From the sequence record OK040907: 64,000 bases of DNA; one strand, given 5' to 3'. The notes beneath the pieces are model-generated. The model saw nothing but the letters and a program-made list of their open reading frames with translations, did no database searches and was not told where the DNA came from. Shown piece by piece: positions 3,994 to 62,106 of the stretch (the stretch's first letter is position 1; each line of letters begins with the position of its first letter). This stretch comes from Enterobacteria phage Ac3. The translations under genes were made by a program, and so were the position numbers.

Positions 3994-4275
3994 TTAAAAT
4001 GTAATTTCTAACCAATCACCATCACGCTGATCACTATTGACTTTAAAATTAAATCCTTCTTTTCTCAGCCAATCACCAATTTCTTCAGTAATCAATTTAT
4101 CACGAGCAGTACAATAATAACTAAAATATGTTTTACCTTGTTCAGCTGCTTTATTAGCAAGTTCTGAAAAATCTTTAATAAAACACTCTAGCTTAAACTG
4201 TTTACTTTTTAATGCTTTTTCACGTAATTGATTAGCAAAAGATTCATTTTCATAAAGATTACACAGTGCCGTTTT
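3994..4275 (-). pseudogene. ATG-less 93-codon AT-rich open frame (possible 5'-disrupted small gene or non-canonical start)
   Basis: open frame with T4-like codon usage (…ELANKAAEQGKTYFSYYCTARDKLITEEIGDWLRKEGFNFKVNSDQRDGDWLEITF) but no in-frame ATG/GTG; begins immediately after a TGA inside the 3' end of the adjacent GC-rich ORF. Confidence 0.3.
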
Positions 4276-4474
4276 TCACCTTTTTGTTGATGTGACGTTT
4301 GCGGTAAACCACTTTTTCGCGGGTTTCGAACTTGTTTTTAGCGGTCATGGCACGTGCCCACAGAACGGCAACTTCTTTGGCCTGCAGGTTCAGTTCACGA
4401 GCAATTTCGATGAAGCTTTTACCGGATTCGTGCAGGGTGAACACTACAACCTCGGTGCGCATAATCAATCTCAT
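4259..4474 (-). CDS. small GC-rich ORF, predicted helix-turn-helix protein with basic C-terminal tail
   Basis: 71-codon ORF (alternative start at second ATG, 4462); ESGKSFIEIARELNLQAKEVAVLW resembles a transposase/regulator-type HTH; composition clearly more G+C-rich than flanks. Confidence 0.5.
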   Translation of the reverse strand: MRLIMRTEVVVFTLHESGKSFIEIARELNLQAKEVAVLWARAMTAKNKFETREKVVYRKRHINKKVKNGTV

Positions 4475-10279: not shown

Positions 10280-10305
10280 ATTTAGCTCCTTTATTTATCA
10301 TATCT

Positions 10306-16889: not shown

Positions 16890-16920
16890 TTTGTGTTCCT
16901 CATGTTATGTCAGTAAGACT

Positions 16921-16950
16921 ACTATAACACAACATGAGGGACTTGTAAAC
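16921..16950 (-). promoter_or_regulatory. T4-type early promoter (GTTTAC, 18-nt spacer, TATAGT)
   Basis: minus strand GTTTACaagtccctcatgttgtgtTATAGT; part of an exact 54-bp repeat also found at 32174..32227. Confidence 0.7.
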
Positions 16951-19007
16951 TACATTTTGAACTTTTTAGACATTCCGTTGATGTTAACCAAAGAAGCTAA
17001 GATTTGAGAAACTTCGTTTTCCTCTTCTTTTGATTCTTCTACAAGGAATTGATTAAATCCAGCCATTGGACGAACTTCACCAGTTTCCATTAGATGGTCG
17101 CCATCATATACTGATTCTTCTAATTGTTCAGAAGGAGGAACGATTGTACCTTCGATTAGATACTTGTTATAAGCAGTTTCTTTCATAAAGTAAGTACTTA
17201 CTTTATTAATCTTCAGTAAAATTCCACGTGGTAGAATAACTTCAGCTTCTGATGGAAATCCTGATAAATGACCTGGAACGATAACTTTAACTCGTTCAGC
17301 TCCTTTAATTACCATACCCACGCTAGTTTCAGCATCTTCATTAGCATATGTAGAATGACTACCCATATGCATCAAATCTTCTGCATCAACGGAACCTTCT
17401 CCTTCACCAGAAAATACTGCTCCGGAATTATCTAAGGCCATATAATTTTTACCATACTCACCAAAGATATTTGGTTTAAGTGATGTCGATACGAAGTTCT
17501 TGAAATAGAACATTTTATTTTCAATGTTATGACGCAAAGTTTTAAAAGTAACTTCTTGTCCACGGTAAAGTGTAGTTCCTGGAGGAAGAACTGAACCTTT
17601 AGCGAATGCAGAATCCAGCGTCTCAATATGTTTAATAGCTCGTTCCATATATTCTTCACGTGTAGAATCAGGTTTACCTAAAAGGAATGAGTTCATTTCA
17701 ACATACGAATCTGCGCAATAATCTTCAATTACATCAGACTCAGCCTGAGTCAATCCTTTTGGAGTTACTTCAGTGCTTGCATATTCATACGCCTGAGCAG
17801 CGGATTCATCAATTAATTTATAAATTCCATTCATTACAAATTGAATAATAGCTGTCTTTTCATCTGGTGTAGCTTTAGAACCTTTAACTAAATCATTGAT
17901 AATTTTCTTAATAACATCAAAACTATTAGAAATATTAATATCAGCAAGATCGCTTAAAATTTTATCAGTTTTGTAATTAAAGAAGTCTTTATTCTTTAAA
18001 TATTCCTGGGAACCTTGATATGATGTATCGCTCTGCAACTTGATAGATGGATCGCGTAAACGCGCATGGGCTAATGCAATATGATTTCGGAAACTTTCTA
18101 GTTCATAATCGTTAGATTTAAAACGAGAAGCACTTCTCATACCGCCGATAGCTCCTTTGCCGAAGTTTGAACCAATCTGAATAACGCCAGAGTTCATTGG
18201 TCCTTCTGCTTTATATACCGGAACTTTAGATTCAAATTCTTGATATTTCTTAGCAGCGAAGCTATCACCCTGAAGTGAAGCATCAACAGTAGAATATTGA
18301 GCTTGTGCTGCTAATCGACGACTAATTTTAGTTTTCTGAATAACAGCTTGATCCGTACGCTTATCATTTTCTAAAGCAATAGAAGCAGCAACTGCGACAG
18401 CTTTAGGAACAGCATTACCTGTTTTAACGTCTACATAAACATCACCGACTTTCGATTCAACTTTTGTGAATAACTCAGTTGAAATAGGAGGTACACCTGG
18501 AATGTCTTCTAAATTGGCATTTTTACGGTAAACCATAATATATGCATATTTCTTATCATAGTCCCAGATTTCCTTTAAAAGAACATATCGACCTGCTCCT
18601 TTAGTACGTACTAAACGGTCAGCAATAACTTGCATTTGACGAGCAGCGCCATTTGTTTTACTTTTTAGTACGCGGAATAGGCATGCATCAATTTTATACT
18701 GTTTCATTGTTTGAAGAGCAGTATCAAAAACCGCATTAATGACACCAATTGGATTTCCACCCAAGTTTTTAAGCTTAACTAACGATAATTTCTCATTAAC
18801 ACCTATCATTACGATATGCATCATTTTGTCGCCTGGCTTAACGTTTTTATTCGTATCACCGCCAGAGGTGTATGTACAAAATCGAAATCCAGGAAGAACG
18901 CTTTCTTCACCGGCTTGAATAGCAAAAATTTGAGGTATTTTATGCTTAGGATTTAAGTTAACAACCGGCGCCGAAGCGCCGTCAAATAATTCTGTAATAA
19001 GTTCCAT
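16950..19007 (-). CDS. Alt-like ADP-ribosyltransferase, paralog 2
   Basis: 685-aa ORF; N-terminus MELITELFDG; ART-like motifs YRGQ, FVSTS, EAEVILPRG (R / S-T-S / E-x-E). Confidence 0.85.
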   Translation of the reverse strand: MELITELFDGASAPVVNLNPKHKIPQIFAIQAGEESVLPGFRFCTYTSGGDTNKNVKPGDKMMHIVMIGVNEKLSLVKLKNLGGNPIGVINAVFDTALQTMKQYKIDACLFRVLKSKTNGAARQMQVIADRLVRTKGAGRYVLLKEIWDYDKKYAYIMVYRKNANLEDIPGVPPISTELFTKVESKVGDVYVDVKTGNAVPKAVAVAASIALENDKRTDQAVIQKTKISRRLAAQAQYSTVDASLQGDSFAAKKYQEFESKVPVYKAEGPMNSGVIQIGSNFGKGAIGGMRSASRFKSNDYELESFRNHIALAHARLRDPSIKLQSDTSYQGSQEYLKNKDFFNYKTDKILSDLADINISNSFDVIKKIINDLVKGSKATPDEKTAIIQFVMNGIYKLIDESAAQAYEYASTEVTPKGLTQAESDVIEDYCADSYVEMNSFLLGKPDSTREEYMERAIKHIETLDSAFAKGSVLPPGTTLYRGQEVTFKTLRHNIENKMFYFKNFVSTSLKPNIFGEYGKNYMALDNSGAVFSGEGEGSVDAEDLMHMGSHSTYANEDAETSVGMVIKGAERVKVIVPGHLSGFPSEAEVILPRGILLKINKVSTYFMKETAYNKYLIEGTIVPPSEQLEESVYDGDHLMETGEVRPMAGFNQFLVEESKEEENEVSQILASLVNINGMSKKFKM

Positions 19008-19010
19008 GAT

Positions 19011-21107
19011 TTATCCTTGAACGAACTTGTAAGGCATGTTTGTAATATCTATGCAAGACGCAATAATTCCAAGAGATGATTCTACTTTCTGTTTAACGTT
19101 TGATGAAACAAATGATGCAAAGTCAACTCTGTCTTCTATTTCAGTATCACCTGTCATTGCAACTACTTCACCGGTTTCCATTAAATGGTCTCCGTCATAG
19201 ATTACCGATTCGGTGAGCTCTTCCGTGGTCATAACTTCAGCTTGAATGAGTTTTGTATTATTAGATGTTGTTCCGTCATTATTAGAAGCATCAGTTATTT
19301 TATTAACTTTGACCATCAATCCACGCGGTAGAATAACTTCAGCTTCTGTTGCTATTCCGAGACTTCCTGGATATACAACATTAACTTTATGAGCTCCATC
19401 AATTGCCCATCCTATTTGAACTTTAACGTATTCAGGATTTTCTTTATACGCTCTTATTTCGTTTGGATTAATAGTTATTCCTTCTTCATTTTTATCAACT
19501 GTTAATTCATTGCGAGCTTCTGGTTCTAAAAGACCAATACCAGCATGTGTGATTCCAAAACGTCCAAAAATGATAGGAGTTAAAGAAGTAGATACAAAAT
19601 TTCTGAAGTAGAACACTTTATTTTTAACTAACGCTTCATATATAGGAGCAGTCATACTTTGAGCACGATAAACTGTAATGCCTTCTGGTATACGGTCACC
19701 ATTTTCAAAAGCTGAATCTAAGTTATTTATAGCAGATTCAATTTCTTTTTCACTCATTACATCATATCGTTCTGGATTGTAACGACCTAAAAGAAGATTA
19801 TTGATGTCAGTATATCCTGAACCACAATATTCTCTAATGCCACGCTTTTGTGATGGAGTATATTTAGAACCATCGCGGGCAATAGTAATATCAATCATTG
19901 GACCAGCACCAATTCCAGAAAAACTGTAAATCATTCGTTTGAGGAATTTAGTTTTTGCTGCGTTCCAGGAATTTTTAGTTATTTCTTCCCAGACTTCATC
20001 TGGTTGTCCTTTACGATTTTTATTATGATTAGCAAGCCATTTATCTTTATAATCTTCAAAGAATTGATTTACAGCTGCTGCGTATTTCTCTAAACATTTT
20101 ATTGAAGTAGTTGGTTCATTTTTAATTGCATTAAAAATTACTTCTTTAATTTTTTCTGAAACTTCACCGACTTGACTCATTGGAAAGAATTTATAATCAT
20201 AGTGAAGTTCATCTGCCGTTCCTTCAGCAATAATTTTTGCTGCCTTTGTTTTAGAAGCTAATGAATTAATTCCAATTTTCATTTCTTCTGCTTCGGGAAT
20301 TAAAGGTGCAGTAGCTGGTTTATTAAAATTAGCTGCTGTAGATTCATACTTCTGGAATAATTCACTTTCAAATCTAGAAGATTCCAATGACTGACTTTGT
20401 GCAATTGCTCTACGGGAAATTTTAACTTTAACGATTACGGCTTGGTCAGAACGTTTATCATTTTCTTGTGCAATAGATGCAGCAATTGCCTCATTTTTGG
20501 TTACTTGAGCTCCAGTATCTTTATTGATATAAACATCACCGACCTTCGATTCAACTTTAGTAAAGAGCTCGGTGCTAATTTCTGGAACTCCTGGAATGTC
20601 TTCTAGTGATACATTTTTACGATGTATAAGAATATATGCATACTTTTTATCGTAATCCCAGAGTTCCTTAAGAAGGACGTATCTGCCACCTGAACGACTG
20701 CGGATGAGTCTATCAGCAATAAGTTGAATTTGTCGAGCTTGACCTGCGGTTTTAGACTTAAGAATACGAAGCATGCAGGCATCAATTTTATATTGACGCA
20801 TTGTTTGCATTGCAACAGTAAAAACTGAATTGATATAATTAATCGGGCTTGGACCAAGACCTTTTAATTTAGCAATTGAACCTTTAGCAGTTAATGTAAA
20901 AGGAACAATATGCATCATTTTATCGCCCATCTTTAAATCACGATTAGTATCACCTCCAGATGTATAGGTACATAAACGAAAGCCTGGTTGTTCAATTGCA
21001 TCATCAACATGAACTGAAAAAATTTGTGGTATTTTCTTCTTTGGATTTAAGTTTGTAATCGGAAGAGTAGTATCTTCGTCAAATAATTCTGTAATGAGTT
21101 CCATCAT
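19011..21107 (-). CDS. alt: Alt-like ADP-ribosyltransferase, paralog 1
   Basis: 698-aa ORF; N-terminus MMELITELFDEDTTLPITNLNPKKKIPQIF; motifs YRAQ, FVSTS, EAEVILPRG; late promoter upstream; adjacent to gene 30 as T4 alt. Confidence 0.88.
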   Translation of the reverse strand: MMELITELFDEDTTLPITNLNPKKKIPQIFSVHVDDAIEQPGFRLCTYTSGGDTNRDLKMGDKMMHIVPFTLTAKGSIAKLKGLGPSPINYINSVFTVAMQTMRQYKIDACMLRILKSKTAGQARQIQLIADRLIRSRSGGRYVLLKELWDYDKKYAYILIHRKNVSLEDIPGVPEISTELFTKVESKVGDVYINKDTGAQVTKNEAIAASIAQENDKRSDQAVIVKVKISRRAIAQSQSLESSRFESELFQKYESTAANFNKPATAPLIPEAEEMKIGINSLASKTKAAKIIAEGTADELHYDYKFFPMSQVGEVSEKIKEVIFNAIKNEPTTSIKCLEKYAAAVNQFFEDYKDKWLANHNKNRKGQPDEVWEEITKNSWNAAKTKFLKRMIYSFSGIGAGPMIDITIARDGSKYTPSQKRGIREYCGSGYTDINNLLLGRYNPERYDVMSEKEIESAINNLDSAFENGDRIPEGITVYRAQSMTAPIYEALVKNKVFYFRNFVSTSLTPIIFGRFGITHAGIGLLEPEARNELTVDKNEEGITINPNEIRAYKENPEYVKVQIGWAIDGAHKVNVVYPGSLGIATEAEVILPRGLMVKVNKITDASNNDGTTSNNTKLIQAEVMTTEELTESVIYDGDHLMETGEVVAMTGDTEIEDRVDFASFVSSNVKQKVESSLGIIASCIDITNMPYKFVQG

Positions 21108-21127
21108 ATCCTCTCTAGTGTTTATTC

Positions 21128-29405: not shown

Positions 29406-30795
<1,390 letters not shown>

Positions 30796-30799
<4 letters not shown>

Positions 30800-32169: not shown

Positions 32170-32197
32170 AAAGTCCTCATGTTATGTCAGTAAGACT

Positions 32198-32227
32198 ACT
32201 ATAACACAACATGAGGGACTTGTAAAC
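32198..32227 (-). promoter_or_regulatory. T4-type early promoter (GTTTAC, 18-nt spacer, TATAGT)
   Basis: identical to the promoter at 16921..16950; within exact 54-bp repeat. Confidence 0.7.
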
Positions 32228-40549: not shown

Positions 40550-40789
40550 TTAAGCTTTCTTGGCAACTTTCCAGTCAGCTTTGAACTGATCGACGTCGCT
40601 GTGATGGATCCAGAAGCCGGAGCTGGAACCGTCTTCATAGAGTGGGCAACCGTCACATTCATCTTCCCAACCCATATCACGCAGGAGATGTTCTGCCTTT
40701 TCGATCAGCTCGGAATCTTTACCAATGATGTTGAAGTACCATTTGCCGCGTACTTCAGAGTCTTTAATGGACTGACGCTGCAGACGCAT
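40550..40789 (-). CDS. small GC-rich early protein with CxxC-like pair
   Basis: ORF track 40550..40879 (TTG start); real start taken as ATG at 40789 preceded by GAGGAG and an early promoter; 79 aa, E. coli-like codons. Confidence 0.55.
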   Translation of the reverse strand: MRLQRQSIKDSEVRGKWYFNIIGKDSELIEKAEHLLRDMGWEDECDGCPLYEDGSSSGFWIHHSDVDQFKADWKVAKKA

Positions 40790-41150: not shown

Positions 41151-41496
41151 CTACATTGTTTTCGTCAACAATGCAGTGAATTTTTGTTACGCCAGAAACT
41201 ATACCTTCATTAGCGGATTGAGGCTTTTCTAAAGTTACCTCAGTAAAGTATTTGAATTCTTCAGAGTAAATCTCAAAATACGTCTCAAGTGGGCCACCCG
41301 CCATGTATTCAGTACCATCTTCCATAGTTACACGTACCACACATTCACCAGCACAATCATCACTTTCCATTTCATCTACAACAAAACTAGGTCCGTGCTT
41401 CTCTATTAAATTTAGCATCATTACATTGCAACGGCACTCGTTAGCAAAGTCATTTTTAAATAAAGGGTTAATGATATAAGTTTTTCCAACTTCCAC
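41110..41496 (-). CDS. hypothetical acidic protein
   Basis: 128-aa ORF. Confidence 0.5.
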   Translation of the reverse strand: MEVGKTYIINPLFKNDFANECRCNVMMLNLIEKHGPSFVVDEMESDDCAGECVVRVTMEDGTEYMAGGPLETYFEIYSEEFKYFTEVTLEKPQSANEGIVSGVTKIHCIVDENNVDEIIELLRKTFKA

Positions 41497-41542: not shown

Positions 41543-41773
41543 TTACTGTTCGATGAGACCCATGTAGAATTCCGCATCTTCGGAGTCCATACCGTCGCAG
41601 TATTCGTTAGCCATGAAGCGGGTCAGGTCCTCCAGTGGACCCTCAATAACAATGCTAAAGTTACAATAGTTCGGGTCATCATGGATGGAAGTAATAGACA
41701 GCTCCGGGTAACGGTTGCGGATAATTTCCTCGATGTATTCGAAATCAACGATGTCGATGTCTACTTTAGCCAT
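41543..41773 (-). CDS. small GC-rich acidic early protein
   Basis: ORF track 41543..41836; start moved to MAKVDIDIV (76 aa) preceded by AAGAGGAA and an early promoter. Confidence 0.55.
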
Positions 41774-41919: not shown

Positions 41920-42828
41920 TTACAGGTCGTTCAGGAGGTCATCCAGGTCGGTATCGTCGGCGCTGGAAGAGGAGCCGCTAGAGGAAGACATGAAGTCATC
42001 TTCGGTTTTAGTGTTAAAATCGTCAACGTTAAAGGCGTCCAGGTCATCCGCTACCTTATCGGCTTTCTTAGCCGCAGTAGCCGCAGCACCGCCCATCACA
42101 GCAGTGCCCATAACCTGACCGAACTTGGTGTTGAGTTCCTCAAAAGATTTAAATTTATCTTTGGAGGTCATCTCAGACAGATCTACCATCTGCTCAAACA
42201 GTTCTTTTTGGAAAGATTCGTCATCGATGTTCGGGATAGCAGACTGGTTCAGAAATTTGCTCTCGTCGTAATTGGAGAAACCAGAAACCTGTTTAACCTT
42301 CAGAACGAAGTTGGCACCCTCCCACGGGCAGGTGACGTCGACCGGGGTTTCACCCATCTCCACGTCCACCGCAATCATAGCGTTAATTTTATCCCAGATT
42401 TTCTTACCAAAGCGGTATTTGAAAACCTTACCCTCGTTTTCTGGCGCAGCTGGATCCTTTACAACCAGGATGTTAGCCCAGTAAGAGGTTTTACGTTTCA
42501 CCAGGCCGTATTCTTTATTGTCGGTATTATACAGATCGTTTTTGGAAATGTACTGACACACCGGGCAAGAGTCGTAGTCGCCGTGGGTGGAAGAACAGTT
42601 TTCGATGTACCATTTGCCGTTTTTCTTAAAACCGTGGTTCACCAGGATAGCGAACGGAGCCTGTTCGTCATTTTTGCTCGGCAGGAAGCGGATCACCGCC
42701 TGACCGTTGCCCGCGTTGTCCAGTTTCAGTTTCCATTCGCCTTTGTCCTCAGAGCTGAAGCCACCTTTGTTGCCCGCCAGCTTGGCCATCTGCGCAGCCA
42801 GTTCTGCCGTGCTCTTACGCTTGAACAT
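41920..42828 (-). CDS. 32: single-stranded DNA-binding protein gp32
   Basis: 302-aa ORF; N-terminus [17 protein letters not shown]; zinc-ligand region [12 protein letters not shown]; acidic Ser/Asp-rich C-terminus. Confidence 0.95.
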
Positions 42829-45193: not shown

Positions 45194-48100
45194 ATGGCCG
45201 AGATTAAAAGAAAGTTCAGAGCAGAAGATGGTCTGGACGCAGGTGGTGATAAAATAATCAACGTAGCTTTAGCTGATCGTGCCGTAGGAACTGACGGTGT
45301 AAACGTTGATTACTTAATTCAAGAAAACACAGTTCAACAATATGATCCAACTCGTGGATATTTAAAAGATTTTGTAATCATTTATGATAACCGCTTTTGG
45401 GCTGCTATAAATGATATTCCAAAACCAGCAGGAGCTTTTAATAGCGTACGATGGAGAGCGTTACGCACTGATGCAAACTGGACAACTGTTTCGTCAGGAC
45501 CTTATCAATTAAAATCAGGCGAATCGATTTCAGTTAACACCGCAGCGGGTAATGACATTACATTTACTTTGCCATCTTCTCCAATTGATGGTGATACTAT
45601 CGTTCTCCAAGATATTGGAGGAAAACCTGGAGTTAACCAGGTTTTAATTACAGCTCCGGTACAAAGCATTGTAAATTTTAGAGGTCAACAAGTACGCTCA
45701 GTACTAATGACTCATCCAAAATCACAGATAGTTTTAATTTTTAGTAATCGTCTGTGGCAAATGTATGTTGCTGATTATAGCAGAGAAGCGGCAGTTGTAA
45801 CACCGGCAAGTCTTTATCAAGCGCAATCAAACGATTTTATCGTGCGTAGATTTACTTCTGCTTCAGCAATTAATATTAAACTTCCTAGATTTGCTAATCA
45901 TGGGGATATTATTAATTTTGTTGATTTAGATAAATTAAATCCACTTTATCACACAATTGTTACCACATATGATGAAACAACTTCAGTACAAGAAGTTGGA
46001 ACTCATTCCATTGAAGGCCGTACATCTATTGATGGTTTCTTAATGTTTGATGATAATGAGAAATTGTGGAGATTGTTTGACGGGGATAGTAAAGCACGTT
46101 TACGCATTATAACGACTAATTCTAATATTCGTCCAAATGAAGAAGTCATGGTATTTGGCGCGAATAATGGAACAACCCAAACAATTGAACTTCAGCTTCC
46201 AACTGATATTTCTATCGGTGATACTGTTAAGATTTCCATGAATTATATGAGAAAAGGACAAACAGTTAAAATCAAAGCTGCCGGTGAAGATAAAATTGCT
46301 TCTTCAGTTCAATTGCTGCAATTTCCAAAACGTTCAGAATACCCACCTGAAACTAAATGGGTGACTGTTCAAGAATTAGTTTTTAATGGCGAAACCAATT
46401 ATGTTCCAGTTTTACAGCTTGCTTATATCGAAGATTCCGATGGAAAATATTGGGTTGTACAGCAAAACGTTCCAACTGTAGAAAGAGTAGACTCTTTAAA
46501 TAATTCTACTAGAGCAAGATTAGGCGTAATTGCTTTAGCTACACAGGCTCAAGCTAATGCTGATCTAGAAAATTCTCCACAAAAAGAACTGGCAATTACT
46601 CCAGAAACGTTAGCTAATCGTACTGCTACAGAAACTCGTAGAGGTATTGCAAGAATAGCAACAACTGCGCAAGTAAACCAGGATACCACATTCTCTTTTG
46701 CAGATGACCTTATCATCACTCCTAAAAAGTTGAATGAAAGAACTGCTACAGAAACTCGTAGGGGTGTCGCTGAAATTGCTACGCAACAGGAAACTAATAC
46801 AGGTACTGATGATACGACAATCATCACTCCTAAAAAGCTTCAAGCTCGCCAAGGTTCTGAATCATTATCTGGTATTGTAACTTTTGTATCTACTGCAGGT
46901 GCTACTCCAGCTTCTAGCCGTGAATTAAATGGTACGAATGTTTATAATAAAAACACTAATAATTTAGTTGTTTCGCCAAAAGCTTTGGACCAGTATAAAG
47001 CTACGCCTACTCAACAGGGTGCAGTAATTTTAGCAGTTGAAAGTGAAGTAATTGCTGGTCAAAGTCAAGAAGGATGGGCAAATGCTGTTGTGACGCCAGA
47101 AACGTTACATAAAAAGACATCAACTGATGGAAGAATTGGTTTAATTGAAATTGCTACGCAAAGTGAAGTTAATACAGGAACTGATTATACTCGTGCAGTC
47201 ACTCCTAAAACTTTAAATGACCGTAGAGCAACTGAAAGTTTAAGTGGTATAGCTGAAATTGCTACACAAGTTGAATTCGACGCAGGCGTCGACGATACTC
47301 GTATCTCTACACCATTAAAAATTAAAACTAGATTTAATAGTACTGATCGTACTTCTGTTGTTGCTCTATCTGGATTAGTTGAATCAGGAACTCTCTGGGA
47401 CCATTATACCCTTAATATTCTTGAAGCAAATGAGACACAACGTGGTACACTTCGTGTGGCTACACAAGTTGAAGCTGCTGCTGGAAAATTAGATAATGTT
47501 TTAATAACTCCTAAAAAGCTTTTAGGTACTAAATCTACTGAAGCACAAGAAGGTGTTATTAAAGTTGCAACACAAACCGAAACTGTTGCTGGAACATCGG
47601 CAAATACTGCTGTATCTCCAAAAAATTTAAAATGGATTGTGCAGAGTGAACCTACTTGGGCAGCTACTACTGCAGTAAGAGGCTTTGTTAAAACTTCATC
47701 TGGTTCAATTACATTCGTTGGTAATGATACAGCCGGTTCTACTCAGGACTTAGAGCTATACGAGAAAAATAGCTATGCAGTATCACCATACGAATTAAAC
47801 CGTGTATTAGCAAATTATTTGCCATTAAAAGCAAAAGCTGCAGATAGTAATTTATTGGATGGTCTAGATTCATCTCAGTTCATTCGTAGGGATATTGCGC
47901 AGACGGTTAATGGTTCACTAACCTTAACTCAACAAACGAATCTGAGTGCCCCTCTTGTATCATCTAGTACTGCTACGTTCGGTGGATCAGTTTCAGCAAA
48001 TAGTACATTAACTATTTCTAATACTGGAACAGCAACTCGATTGATTTTTGAGAAAGGACCTCAAACTGGAACAAACCCAGCCCAAACGATGACTGTTAGA

Positions 48101-50914: not shown

Positions 50915-53900
50915 ATGGCTACTTTAAAACAAATACAATTTAAAAGAAGCAAAACCGCAGGAGCACGTCCTGCCGCTTCAGTATTAGCCGAAGGTGAATT
51001 GGCTATAAACTTAAAAGACCGTGTACTTTTTACTAAAGATGACCAAGGAAATATTATTGATCTGGGTTTTGCTAAGGGCGGTAGTATTGACGGGAATGTT
51101 ATTCATATAGGAAACTATAACCAAACTGGTGATTATACTTTAAATGGCGCATTAACTCAGACAGGTAATTTTAATTTAACTGGTATTGCTCGAGTAACTC
51201 GCGATATTATTGCCGCTGGGCAGATTATGACTGAAGGCGGAGAACTTATTACAAAAAGTTCAGGTACAGCGCATGTTCGTTTTTTCGATGGCAATAGTCG
51301 CGAACGCGGAATCATTTATGCCCCGGCTAATGATGGTTTAACTACACAAGTACTTAATATCAGGGTTCAAGACTATGCCGCTGGTAGCGAAACGACTTAT
51401 CGATTTTCAGGCAGTGGCCTATTTACTTCACCTGAAGTATCAGCATGGAAATCTATTTCGTCTCCACAAATTCTGACCGATAAAGTTATTACAAATGGGA
51501 AGAAGACAGGCGATTATGATATCTATTCATTATCAAATAACACTCCAATGGCAGAAGGCGAAACGGCTATTAACCACCTCCGTGTTATGCGAAATGCTGT
51601 AGGAGCAGGTATTTTCCACGAAGTTAATGTTAATGACGGAATAACCTGGTATTCCGGACATGGCTTAGACACTTATCTTTGGTCGTTTAACTGGGCCGGT
51701 GGATTGAAAGCTGGTCATTCTATTGCTGTGGCCTTCCTCACGGTTCTAAAATTATTCAGAAATGGGCACGGCTTCTATTGCTTTAGGAGAGTAGATGATA
51801 CCGGATTTAAATGGCATCAGGATGGATATTATTTCAGCGTTAATAATGGAACAAAAACATTTTTATTTAGTCCTAGTGAAACAACTAGCCTAAGAAAATT
51901 TGTAGCTGGATATTCTACTAACGGAACCGATTTAACGACTCCTCCAACTGAAAACTATGCTCTTGCTACTGTCGTGACATATCACGATAATAACGCGTTT
52001 GGAGATGGTCAGACTCTTTTAGGATATTATCAAGGCGGTAATTATCATCACTATTTCCGCGGTAAAGGTACTACAAACATTAATACTCACGGCGGTTTGT
52101 TAGTTATTACTCCCGGTAATGTAGATGTGGTCGGCGGCATGGTTACCATTGATGGTAAAAATTATGCTTCTAGTGTGCTTTTTAAAGGAAATACTACAGG
52201 ATATAGTTCAGTTGATAATATAGAGCTCAAAGTTTGGGGTGACACTTTTAATACAGTAGGTGGTACTCGTAAAAACGTAATGGAAACATCTGATGCTACT
52301 GGCTGGATGCATTATATTCAACGAACTACAGCAGGTAAAGTTGAGTCCTATTTAAATGGTACCATGAATGTAAATGAAAGCATCAACGTCAGTAAAGAAG
52401 TTAACGCCTCTGGCACTATTGCTAGTAATGCTGTCAATGCGCTTCGCATTTGGAATGCAGATTATGGAGCTATTTTTAGACGTTCAGAAGGAAGTCTTCA
52501 TATTATTCCAACTGCTTATGGTGAAGGCAAAAATGGTGATATCGGTCCACTTCGCCCGTTTAGTATGGCTTTAGATACCGGTAAAGTTACTATTCCAGAT
52601 TTACAATCAAGTTACAATACGTTCGCTGCGAACGGCTATATTAAATTTGTTGGTCATGGAGCGGGTGCCGGCGGTTATGACATTCAATATGCTCAAGCGG
52701 CTCCTATTTTCCAGGAAATTGATGGATGCTGTAAGCAAATATTTATCCCTATTGTTAAACAGAAGTTTTTAAATGGTAAAGCCGTTTGGTCTTTAGGTAC
52801 TGAAATTAATTCTGGTACATTTGTTTTACATCATCTGAAAGAAGATGGACACAAGGTCATACATCAAGATTTAATGCTGACGGTACAGTTAATTTCCCTG
52901 ATAACGTTCAAGTCGGTGGTGGTGAAGCTACTATTGCTCGTAATGGTAATATTTTCTCGGATATTTGGAAACTGTTTACTTCTGCTGGAGACACTACAAA
53001 TATTCGGTGATGCAATAGCTACTCGTGTTGCTAAAGAAGGTGATACGATGACCGGTAGGTTGACTTTATCAGCTGGAAATGATGCACTTGTTTTAACTGC
53101 AGGCGTGGGTGCTTCATCACACATCCGTAGTGATGTAGGTGGTATAGGTAACTGGTATATAGGCAAAGGCGGCGGCGACAATGGTCTAGGTTTTTACAGT
53201 TACATTACACAAGGCGGTGTATACATAACAAATAACGGCGAAATAGCGCTTTCTCCTCAAGGTCAAGGAACATTTAATTTTAATAGGGATCGCCTTTATA
53301 TAAATGCTAGTCAATGGGTTGCACATAAATCTGGCGCTTGGGGTGACCAATGGGGCTTAGAAGCTCCTGTATTTGTGGATTTTGGTAGTGTCGGTAATGA
53401 TAGTTATTATCCTATTATTAAAGGAAAATCTGTTATTACGAATGAAGGATACATATCTGGCGTTGATTTTGGTATGCGTCGCATTACTAATACATGGGCA
53501 CAAGGTATTATTCGTGTAGGTAACCAGGAAAACGGTTCTGACCCACAAGCTATCTATGAATTCCACCACAATGGAGTTATGTATGTTCCTAACATGGTTA
53601 AAACCGGAGCAAGATTATCGGCTGGCGGTGGTGACCCGGTGTGGACTGGACCATGTCTTGTTATTGGTGATAATGTATCCGGATTAGTTCATGGTGGTGA
53701 TGGGCGAATTAACATGGTTGCAAATGGAGCGCATATTGCTTCGTGGTCTTCATCTTATCATTCTCATCCTGGCCTTTGGGATTCAAACGGTGCTTTGTGG
53801 ACGGAAGTTGGCAAAGCAGTTATTTCTCATGGTCATTTAGTTCAGGCGAATGACAACTATTCAACATATGTCCGCGATGTTTATGTCCGCTCTGATATTC

Positions 53901-54226
53901 GTGTTAAAAAGAACCTCGTTAAATTTGAAAATGCTTCTGAGAAGCTTTCTAAAATTAACGGTTACACTTATATGCAGAAACGTGGAACAGATGAAGAAGG
54001 TAATCAGAAATGGGAACCTAACGCAGGTTTGATAGCTCAAGAAGTTCAAGATATTTTACCAGAATTCGTTGAAGGTGACCCGGATGGTGAAGCTTTACTT
54101 CGTTTGAACTATAACGGTGTAATTGGTTTAAATACAGCTGCAATCAATGAGCATACTGCAGAAATTGCAGAACTTAAGTCAGAGATTGAAGAGCTTAAAA
54201 AATTAGTTAAATCATTGTTAAAATAA
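50915..54226 (+). CDS. 37: long tail fibre distal subunit gp37 (T2-type, C-terminal intramolecular-chaperone-like domain)
   Basis: 1103-aa ORF; DTMTGRL repeat; C-terminal SDIRVKKNL…[15 protein letters not shown]…coiled coil resembles autoproteolytic chaperone domains; internal segment 52810..53010 looks frame-shifted (see findings). Confidence 0.88.
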
Positions 54227-54257: not shown

Positions 54258-55031
54258 ATGGCAGTTGAAGGACCGTGGGTAGGATGGTCTGCGAGGGTAC
54301 AGACTGGAGATCCTTGGATGGGTGGTGCCGCGCAGAGATTGAGAATGGGAATTCCGTTTTGGATGAGTAATATGATAGGTCGATCTGTTGAAATAATTCA
54401 CACGCTTGGAGCAGACCATAACTTCAATGGTCAATGGTTCCGAGATAGATGTTTTGAGGCAGGTAGTACACCTATAGTGTTTAATATCACTGGAGATTTA
54501 GTATCATATTCTAAAGATGTTCCTTTATTCTTCATGTACGGAGATACACCGAATGAATATGTTCAGTTGAATATACACGGCGTAGCGATGTATGGCCGTG
54601 GCGGTAATGGCGGTAGCAATAGTCCTGGTTCAGCTGGAGGTCATTGTATTCAAAACGATATTGGTGGGAGACTAAGAATTAATAATGGCGGAGCTATTGC
54701 AGGCGGTGGCGGCGGTGGCGGTGGCGGTAACAGGGGTCGACTAGTATTTGGTGGTGGCGGTGGTCGCCCATTCGGTAGTGGCGGGTCTTCCCTCTCTCAC
54801 ATGAGTGCTGGTGCAACCGCCGGCACCATTTACGCTCCGGGTGCAGGATCTGTCGGTGAGGGGTCTCTTAGTGCATATACAGGCGGGTCTGGTGGTGAAG
54901 TTGGCTCCGCAGGAGGTAGAAATACTCACGGTACCGGTACAGAATATGACGGCGGAGCTGCTGGTTATGCTGTTATAGGGTCGTCTCCAACGTGGATAAA
55001 TGTTGGAGCAATATATGGTCCAAGAGTATAA
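54258..55031 (+). CDS. 38: receptor-recognising adhesin gp38 (T2-type, glycine-rich motifs)
   Basis: ORF track starts at 54246; ATG at 54258 follows GGAGG; conserved N-terminal half then poly-Gly blocks ([25 protein letters not shown]) typical of T2/K3-type gp38 adhesins. Confidence 0.85.
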
Positions 55032-61842: not shown

Positions 61843-62106
61843 TCACAGCTCAATTTCAGCGATTTTCATTTCATTGCTGTTGATTGCTTCCTTCAGAGAA
61901 TCGGACAGAATGACGTTCCAATGATCGTTCATATGACCGTTCACCAGACGGGTGATTTCCTCCGGGGTGGAGAAGTACGGCTGATCAGATTCCCAGTGAG
62001 ACAGACCCAGACGGGTATAGATCATACCTTCGTCATCAGAGGAGTATTCTACGCTGACGAATTCATCAGTGATTTTGTGTTTTGCATAGTAGAATTTAAA
62101 CTTCAT
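61843..62106 (-). CDS. small GC-rich early protein
   Basis: ORF track 61843..62205; start moved to MKFKFYYAKHK (87 aa) downstream of an early promoter; CGT/CTG/CCG codons. Confidence 0.55.
   Translation of the reverse strand: MKFKFYYAKHKITDEFVSVEYSSDDEGMIYTRLGLSHWESDQPYFSTPEEITRLVNGHMNDHWNVILSDSLKEAINSNEMKIAEIEL

Follow-up and report, generated by a model that had tools for sequence, protein, structure and literature searches.

A stretch of gene 37 is read out of frame

Does the distal tail fiber gene of phage Ac3 contain a scrambled segment, or is its sequence wrong in the databases? In the 64,000-nucleotide stretch of record OK040907 that we analyzed (here called the window), gene 37, for the distal subunit of the long tail fiber, is a continuous open reading frame (ORF) of 1103 codons (50915 to 54226; this and all features of genes 37 and 38 below are on the + strand). 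A sequence-only reading of the window had noted about 50 codons of this gene that seemed to be out of frame and had proposed either a genuine recoding of a receptor-proximal fiber segment or a sequencing or assembly error. We asked whether the frameshift is a property of the phage or of the record.

We assigned the gene to the T2/T6 type of T-even gene 37 by synteny, by its C-terminal S74 chaperone, and by full-length identity. The tail fiber genes of the window lie in the order g34-g35-g36-g37-g38-t of a T-even late operon. Their ORFs start at 45194 (g34), 49072 (g35), 50250 (g36), 50915 (g37), 54258 (g38), and 55077 (t) and are collinear with the annotated genes of RB51, VEc74, and SH7. The Pfam domains found in gp37 were a Gp34_trimer(-like) domain at aa 452 to 550 and Peptidase_S74 (PF13884, the C-terminal chaperone) at aa 993 to 1052. 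The gene has matches among the annotated gene 37 sequences of many Tequatrovirus phages, and once its frame was corrected as described below, gp37 shared 75 to 99% identity with more than 100 gp37 proteins in a protein search.

We aligned the window by MAFFT with vB_Eco_CP and VEc74, and then with SH7, fPS-2, MLF4, G2133, EC121, and RB51. The alignments revealed two compensating one-nucleotide gaps. At the first junction (52849/52850) one T is missing: the window reads GATGGA followed directly by CACAAGG, where all relatives have GATGGNTCACARGG. At the second (53005/53006) one G is extra, with ATTCGGTGATGC in the window and ATTCGTGATGC in the relatives, and the frame is restored. Both the deletion of T after 52849 and the insertion of G at 53006 are private to the window when it is compared with these eight relatives, which were independently sequenced, and by different groups. 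The sequence-only reading had expected an indel near 52850, compensated by another near 53003, and the alignments place them at these two junctions. Between them (52850 to 53008), the sequence as written has 53 codons (aa 646 to 698) shifted by one base, which yield a hydrophobic nonsense peptide. The location proposed for the segment did not hold: it lies in the middle of the shaft, between the Gp34_trimer-like domain and the S74 domain, and is not especially receptor proximal.

Over the same nucleotides the −1 frame is open from 52810 to 53010, ending with the TGA at 53008, as had been noticed from the sequence. Its 66 codons encode the true, conserved gp37 sequence, and this open run is the longest of the −1 frame within g37 (the next has 46 codons, and the mean is 7.6). 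The peptide was identical to an independent gp37, P0032, at 51 of 52 residues (E value, 6e-33); the lone mismatch, L for S (WKLF versus WKSF), corresponds to a CT/TC swap at 52972-3. The annotated-frame peptide gave no BLASTP alignment to P0032, a 99%-identical homologue. Compared with its closest relatives, the segment differs at one residue if corrected and at every residue as annotated. In about 400 homologues and at 13 IMG/VR loci, the relatives' frame continues uninterrupted through this region, and the first junction in its T-less form had no match in IMG/VR. We found no homologue with the hydrophobic segment, the observation that would have spoken for the annotated frame: the 52-aa peptide had no match at an E value of ≤10 among 5.8 billion protein clusters, which is a weak result, with the self-match also absent. 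No homologue of solved structure turned up when the PDB was searched by sequence with the corrected segment.

Codon usage and substitutions follow the relatives' frame

To compare the two frames, we trained a codon model on the neighboring fiber genes and calculated log-likelihood ratios over 52-codon windows of g37. The annotated frame of the segment scored −24.1 bits, the minimum for g37 (mean, +27.8; standard deviation, 11.9), and the −1 frame scored +45.7 bits. We also located the nucleotide differences at 52850 to 53005. Most fall on third positions of the relatives' frame (10 of 12 against vB_Eco_CP, 8 of 10 against VEc74, and 12 of 14 against RB51), and these positions are second positions of the annotated frame. 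The substitutions indicate that selection acted in the relatives' frame across 52850 to 53005, up to the present, and by the measures above the frame slip is far beyond chance.

These results bear on two explanations in which the DNA as written is real. The first is a natural −1/+1 double frameshift, similar to the suppressors of Crick and Brenner, in a viable phage in which the 53 scrambled shaft residues are tolerated or even adaptive. Such a gene would be expected to show substitutions and codon usage adapted to the new frame; we found selection in the relatives' frame instead, and the shifted peptide was not found in other sequences. The second is programmed recoding, in which ribosomes shift by −1 near 52849 and by +1 near 53006 and make the conserved peptide from the DNA as written. 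In its favor, the −1 frame carries the conserved sequence, without a stop, over precisely the interval that the junctions enclose. However, we found neither a slippery heptamer (no X_XXY_YYZ within 50 nt of either junction) nor a conserved shift (no relative has the arrangement, and the relatives are collinear in one frame). Moreover, a near-identical, independently assembled contig described below has the bases that remove the need for any shift, and ribosomes would also have to shift at the seven other frame-changing indels, which lie in two further patches of the gene. We give programmed recoding next to no probability.

Gene 37 contains three compensated patches and several point discrepancies

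The frameshift is not a lone event. The description of the patch by the sequence-only reading stands; the same alignments with relatives revealed two more compensated patches in g37 that it had not mentioned. In the first (51729 to 51794), aa 273 to 294 are misread: the window lacks a T after 51728/9 and one base of the A-run at about 51747 to 51751, and it has one G too many at each of 51791 and 51794. In the second (52725 to 52749), it lacks AT after 52724 and has two surplus bases, T at 52744 and C at 52749; aa 604 to 611 read GCCKQIFI where the relatives' frame gives DDAVSKYY. Together with the segment at aa 646 to 698, the patches mistranslate 83 of the 1103 residues of gp37. The ORF stays open through all three, which is in keeping with a natural origin. 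However, three compensated patches in one gene, with none in eight relatives, are not credible as the outcome of evolution.

In addition to the frameshifts, an in-frame extra TTA at 52104 to 52106 adds an Ile to gp37 (LLVITPG versus LLVTPG). Further discrepancies that do not shift the frame lie at 51393-4, 51401-2, 51659, 52972-3, 53071, 53676-8, and 54067. They consist of adjacent-base swaps (CG/GC at both 51393-4 and 51401-2, CT/TC at 52972-3, and TAT/ATA at 53676-8) and three transversions. In the protein, they result in SETTYRFSG for SESTYAFSG, H for D (SGHGLD versus SGDGLD), WKLF for WKSF, NVSG for NDTG, and PEFV for PELV.

The discrepancies are private to a 1998 sequence and absent from an independent assembly

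The g37 coding sequence of the window is identical to that of AF060870.1, a record of phage Ac3 from 1998 that covers g36'-g37-g38 (100% nucleotide identity over 3312 nt, including all three patches). The exact gp37 protein is known only as AAC62007.1, from the 1998 record, and as UJJ74628.1, from a 168,395-nt record named Ac3; an exact-protein lookup in assembled contigs gave nothing on record. The gp38 of the window has the adjacent accession, UJJ74629.1, and the window thus appears to be the final 64 kb of the 168,395-nt record. An identical gene in two records 24 years apart favors a natural double frameshift, and the second public record, taken alone, could look like independent evidence against an artifact.

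We repaired the patches of g37 with the relatives as a guide and used the corrected protein as a search query. Its best match was P0032, a gp37 of 1102 aa at 99% identity, from the Logan assembly of SRR547737; the annotated Ac3 gp37 is only 93% identical to the same query. P0032 is encoded on a 6.2-kb contig of this short-read assembly (SRR547737_69) that carries the same g36-g37-g38 locus. The contig matches AF060870 over about 4.4 kb, across the 3' end of g36, g37, g38, and the g38-t spacer. Because only 39 columns differ over this length, the contig probably comes from the phage of AF060870 or one nearly identical to it. We infer that it represents Ac3 or a near-identical phage, independently sequenced.

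Within g37, the window and the contig share about 99% nucleotide identity (3288 of 3320 counted columns, with three of the mismatch columns being an artifact of extraction 3 nt past the stop codon). The 29 columns that differ amount to about 17 events: 10 small indels (nine that change the frame, and the TTA), four adjacent-base swaps, three transversions, and no transitions. At 28 of these 29 columns, the contig carries the state common to seven other phages, and the window does so at none. The contig lacks all nine frame-changing indels, the TTA, the four swaps, and the three transversions, and its g37 reads in a single frame. Only the 1998 record and the window have the TTA, which is absent also from all relatives. 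Thus, the window has the indels, they are specific to the 1998 sequence, and independent sequencing of this locus on a near-identical template shows none of them. That all of the roughly 17 events fall on one branch, without a transition, and that an independent contig has none of the nine frame-changing indels both argue against a natural double frameshift. The spectrum is that expected of errors, with miscounted runs and swapped bases, and several patches occur in one record. A spectrum that is one-sided, dominated by indels and swaps, and free of transitions points to manual gel-reading errors and not to the divergence of a sister phage.

Genes 37 and 38 were apparently copied into an RB51/RB68-type backbone

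Gene 38, the adhesin gene that follows (54258 to 55031; protein UJJ74629.1), equals the g38 coding sequence of AF060870 minus one TGT codon. It carries discrepancies private to AF060870, an extra CCT at 54791-3 and a GT/TG swap at 54983-4, which result in SSLSH for SSSH and GSSPT for GSAPT in gp38. These and the non-frameshifting discrepancies of g37 are probably further errors inherited from AF060870. Both the 1998 record and the SRR547737 contig have the TGT (Cys) codon that is missing at 54920/54921 (GGRCNTHG, which becomes GGRNTHG in the window), and the loss of this codon makes the g38 of the window 774 nt, the exact length of g38 in RB51.

The resemblance to the 1998 record ends at the coding sequences. 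The g36 of the window is RB51-type, and the 1998 record and the contig share a different g36 3' end; AF060870.1 differs from the window there by 11 substitutions in the last 220 nt, with more upstream. From the base that directly follows the g38 stop codon, the window is RB51-type, and the g38-t spacer is 15 nt shorter in the 1998 record and the contig than in the window. Of the errors private to the 1998 record, the window has inherited only those that lie within the g37 and g38 coding sequences. A TA/AT swap in g36, an extra C 6 nt after the g37 stop codon, and the spacer after g38 were not inherited, the window being RB51-type after both stop codons. We infer from these boundaries that the two coding sequences were taken over from the 1998 entry, not freshly sequenced, and placed in a backbone of the RB51/RB68 type.

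Outside g37, g38, and six recoded genes described below, the window is identical to RB51 (FJ839693) except at 10304, 20404, and 41304. The first is an extra C a short way upstream of TATAAATA, the late promoter of gene 51; the other two are substitutions (Alt T234I at 20404 and Frd.2 L65M at 41304) that both match the RB68 state. Compared with RB68 (KM607004), the window has 7 nt fewer at 1685. In the 1.4 kb that follows gene t, about 25 substitutions separate the real Ac3 from RB51. As judged by these comparisons, the backbone of the window is that of a sibling of RB51 and RB68 and not that of the real Ac3. Two repeats in this backbone also occur in RB51: a perfect 54-bp direct repeat (16897 to 16950 and 32174 to 32227), with copies 15 kb apart, and the paralogues alt.-2 (18303 to 19017) and alt (20418 to 21112), which share about 68% identity.

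Six genes of the window are codon optimized

Six genes, all on the − strand, are recoded: 24.3 (4259 to 4462), RB32ORF217c (30497 to 30799), frd.1 (40550 to 40789), frd.3 (41543 to 41773), gene 32 (41920 to 42828), and RB51ncORF272c (61843 to 62106). Compared with RB51 and RB68, 20 to 27% of their nucleotides differ without a single amino acid change. The changes are confined to the coding sequences, with 100% identity in the flanks. The recoded genes use codons optimal for Escherichia coli: Leu is encoded by CTG and CTC only, and ATA, AGA, AGG, CGA, CGG, GGA, GGG, TCA, TCG, AGT, ACA, CCT, and CCC are absent. Three of four TGA stops have become TAA, and the GC content has risen from about 36% to about 48%. 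The recoded version of gene 32 had no match among 50,697 phage records. Where 24.3 overlaps 24.2 (4259 to 4272, − strand), the start codon of 24.2 has changed from ATG to ACG and its first five codons are altered; what remains of 24.2 is an ORF of 33 aa with a TTG start (3994 to 4095). The recoding thus seems to have taken no account of overlapping genes. The recoding of the six genes is artificial codon optimization and not evolution.

The window therefore appears to be a composite or constructed sequence, a view that the artificial recoding of the six genes reinforces. We considered whether the record could be a reference-guided consensus built on RB51 and rejected this, as such a consensus fails to explain divergent patches that are in register, bounded by coding sequences, and without amino acid changes. 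Because the window appears composite, its other anomalies are suspect as well.

The apparent composite structure also bears on what the second record is worth as evidence. We rejected UJJ74628.1 as an independent confirmation of the frameshifted protein, given flanks that are RB51/RB68-type up to the boundaries of the coding sequences and six recoded genes that look synthetic. One argument for a natural double frameshift was the identity of the two records. However, the later record is not independent, its flanks switching type at those boundaries, and the 1998 record and the SRR547737 contig share flanks that differ from those of the later record. Together with the results on selection, the event spectrum, and the contig, this largely refutes a natural double frameshift, which we regard as extremely improbable.

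A further explanation is that the frameshifted g37 exists as physical DNA in an engineered or synthesized phage of the RB51/RB68 type, with g37 and g38 taken from the 1998 text and combined with codon-optimized genes. Several observations fit this: the six genes are recoded to E. coli-optimal codons without amino acid changes, the g37/g38 swap is compatible with the boundaries of the coding sequences and is exact at the g38 stop codon, and the backbone differs from RB51 and RB68 by few point changes, as a real stock would. However, in such a phage the overlapping 24.2 would have lost its ATG and first five codons to the recoding of 24.3, and the fiber would carry 83 scrambled residues. The design looks untested and more like an in silico product, and we found no paper describing such a phage. 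Our literature searches, on the Ac3 genome and on SRR547737, yielded only passing mentions of Ac3 g37 and g38 and nothing on the 168,395-nt record. We consider an engineered phage very unlikely; even if there were one, the origin of the frameshift would still be the 1998 error. It is likewise extremely doubtful that a gp37 with 83 scrambled residues exists in any viable phage, be it an engineered derivative of RB51/RB68 or the phage stock from which the 168,395-nt record came, and forms functional fibers. If it did, large segments of the gp37 shaft would tolerate arbitrary sequence.

The compensating frameshift is most probably an artifact of the 1998 sequence

We conclude, with a probability of about 95%, that the compensating frameshift is an artifact that is absent from the real phage gene and that the g37 of the window is a verbatim copy of the 1998 sequence AF060870. 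Of the two origins offered by the sequence-only reading, the error is the one that agrees with the SRR547737 contig, from which the indels are absent; genuine recoding does not. The indels probably arose as gel-reading or editing errors. AF060870 would have acquired a cluster of miscounted bases, many of them in short runs, along with swaps of adjacent bases and a small number of miscalls. After an error that broke the frame, the frame may have been restored by another error close by or by editing that aimed at an open ORF. The outcome would be the three short stretches out of register at aa 273 to 294, 604 to 611, and 646 to 698.

No recoding, change of host range, or new fiber architecture is involved. 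The consequence is for the databases: the Ac3 gp37 entries AAC62007.1, UniRef O80269, and UJJ74628.1 have 83 of 1103 residues mistranslated and several point errors in addition. They are unfit for tail fiber alignments, host range models, or engineering. The correct Ac3 gp37 sequence is given by the SRR547737 contig.

Comparison with known compensating frameshifts and with other gp37 proteins

The arrangement resembles the acridine-induced double mutants of T4 rIIB, which Crick, Brenner, and colleagues reportedly described in 1961 as compensating (+/−) frameshift pairs. In both cases, a −1 and a +1 change lie close together, the peptide between them is scrambled, and the frame is restored afterwards. 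They differ in that the pair in g37 is not a property of the phage, being absent from an independent sequence of the same gene. The gp37 of the SRR547737 contig shares its locus and flanks with the 1998 record but lacks the indels, swaps, and transversions of that record. AF060870.1 itself has the g37 of the window, patches included, and departs from it in its g36 3' end, in the TGT codon of g38, and in the nucleotides after the two genes.

The T2/T6-type gp37 proteins (those of RB51, RB68, VEc74, vB_Eco_CP, SH7, PP01, and others) have a separate gp38 adhesin and a C-terminal S74 intramolecular chaperone. The gp37 of the window is like them in synteny, in its length of 1103 aa, and in its Gp34_trimer-like and Peptidase_S74 domains, and it is 75 to 91% identical to them once corrected. 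It differs as written in its 83 frame-scrambled residues, peptides that no member of the T2/T6-type family shares. The true Ac3 gp37 would read through in one frame, like every other T2/T6-type gp37.
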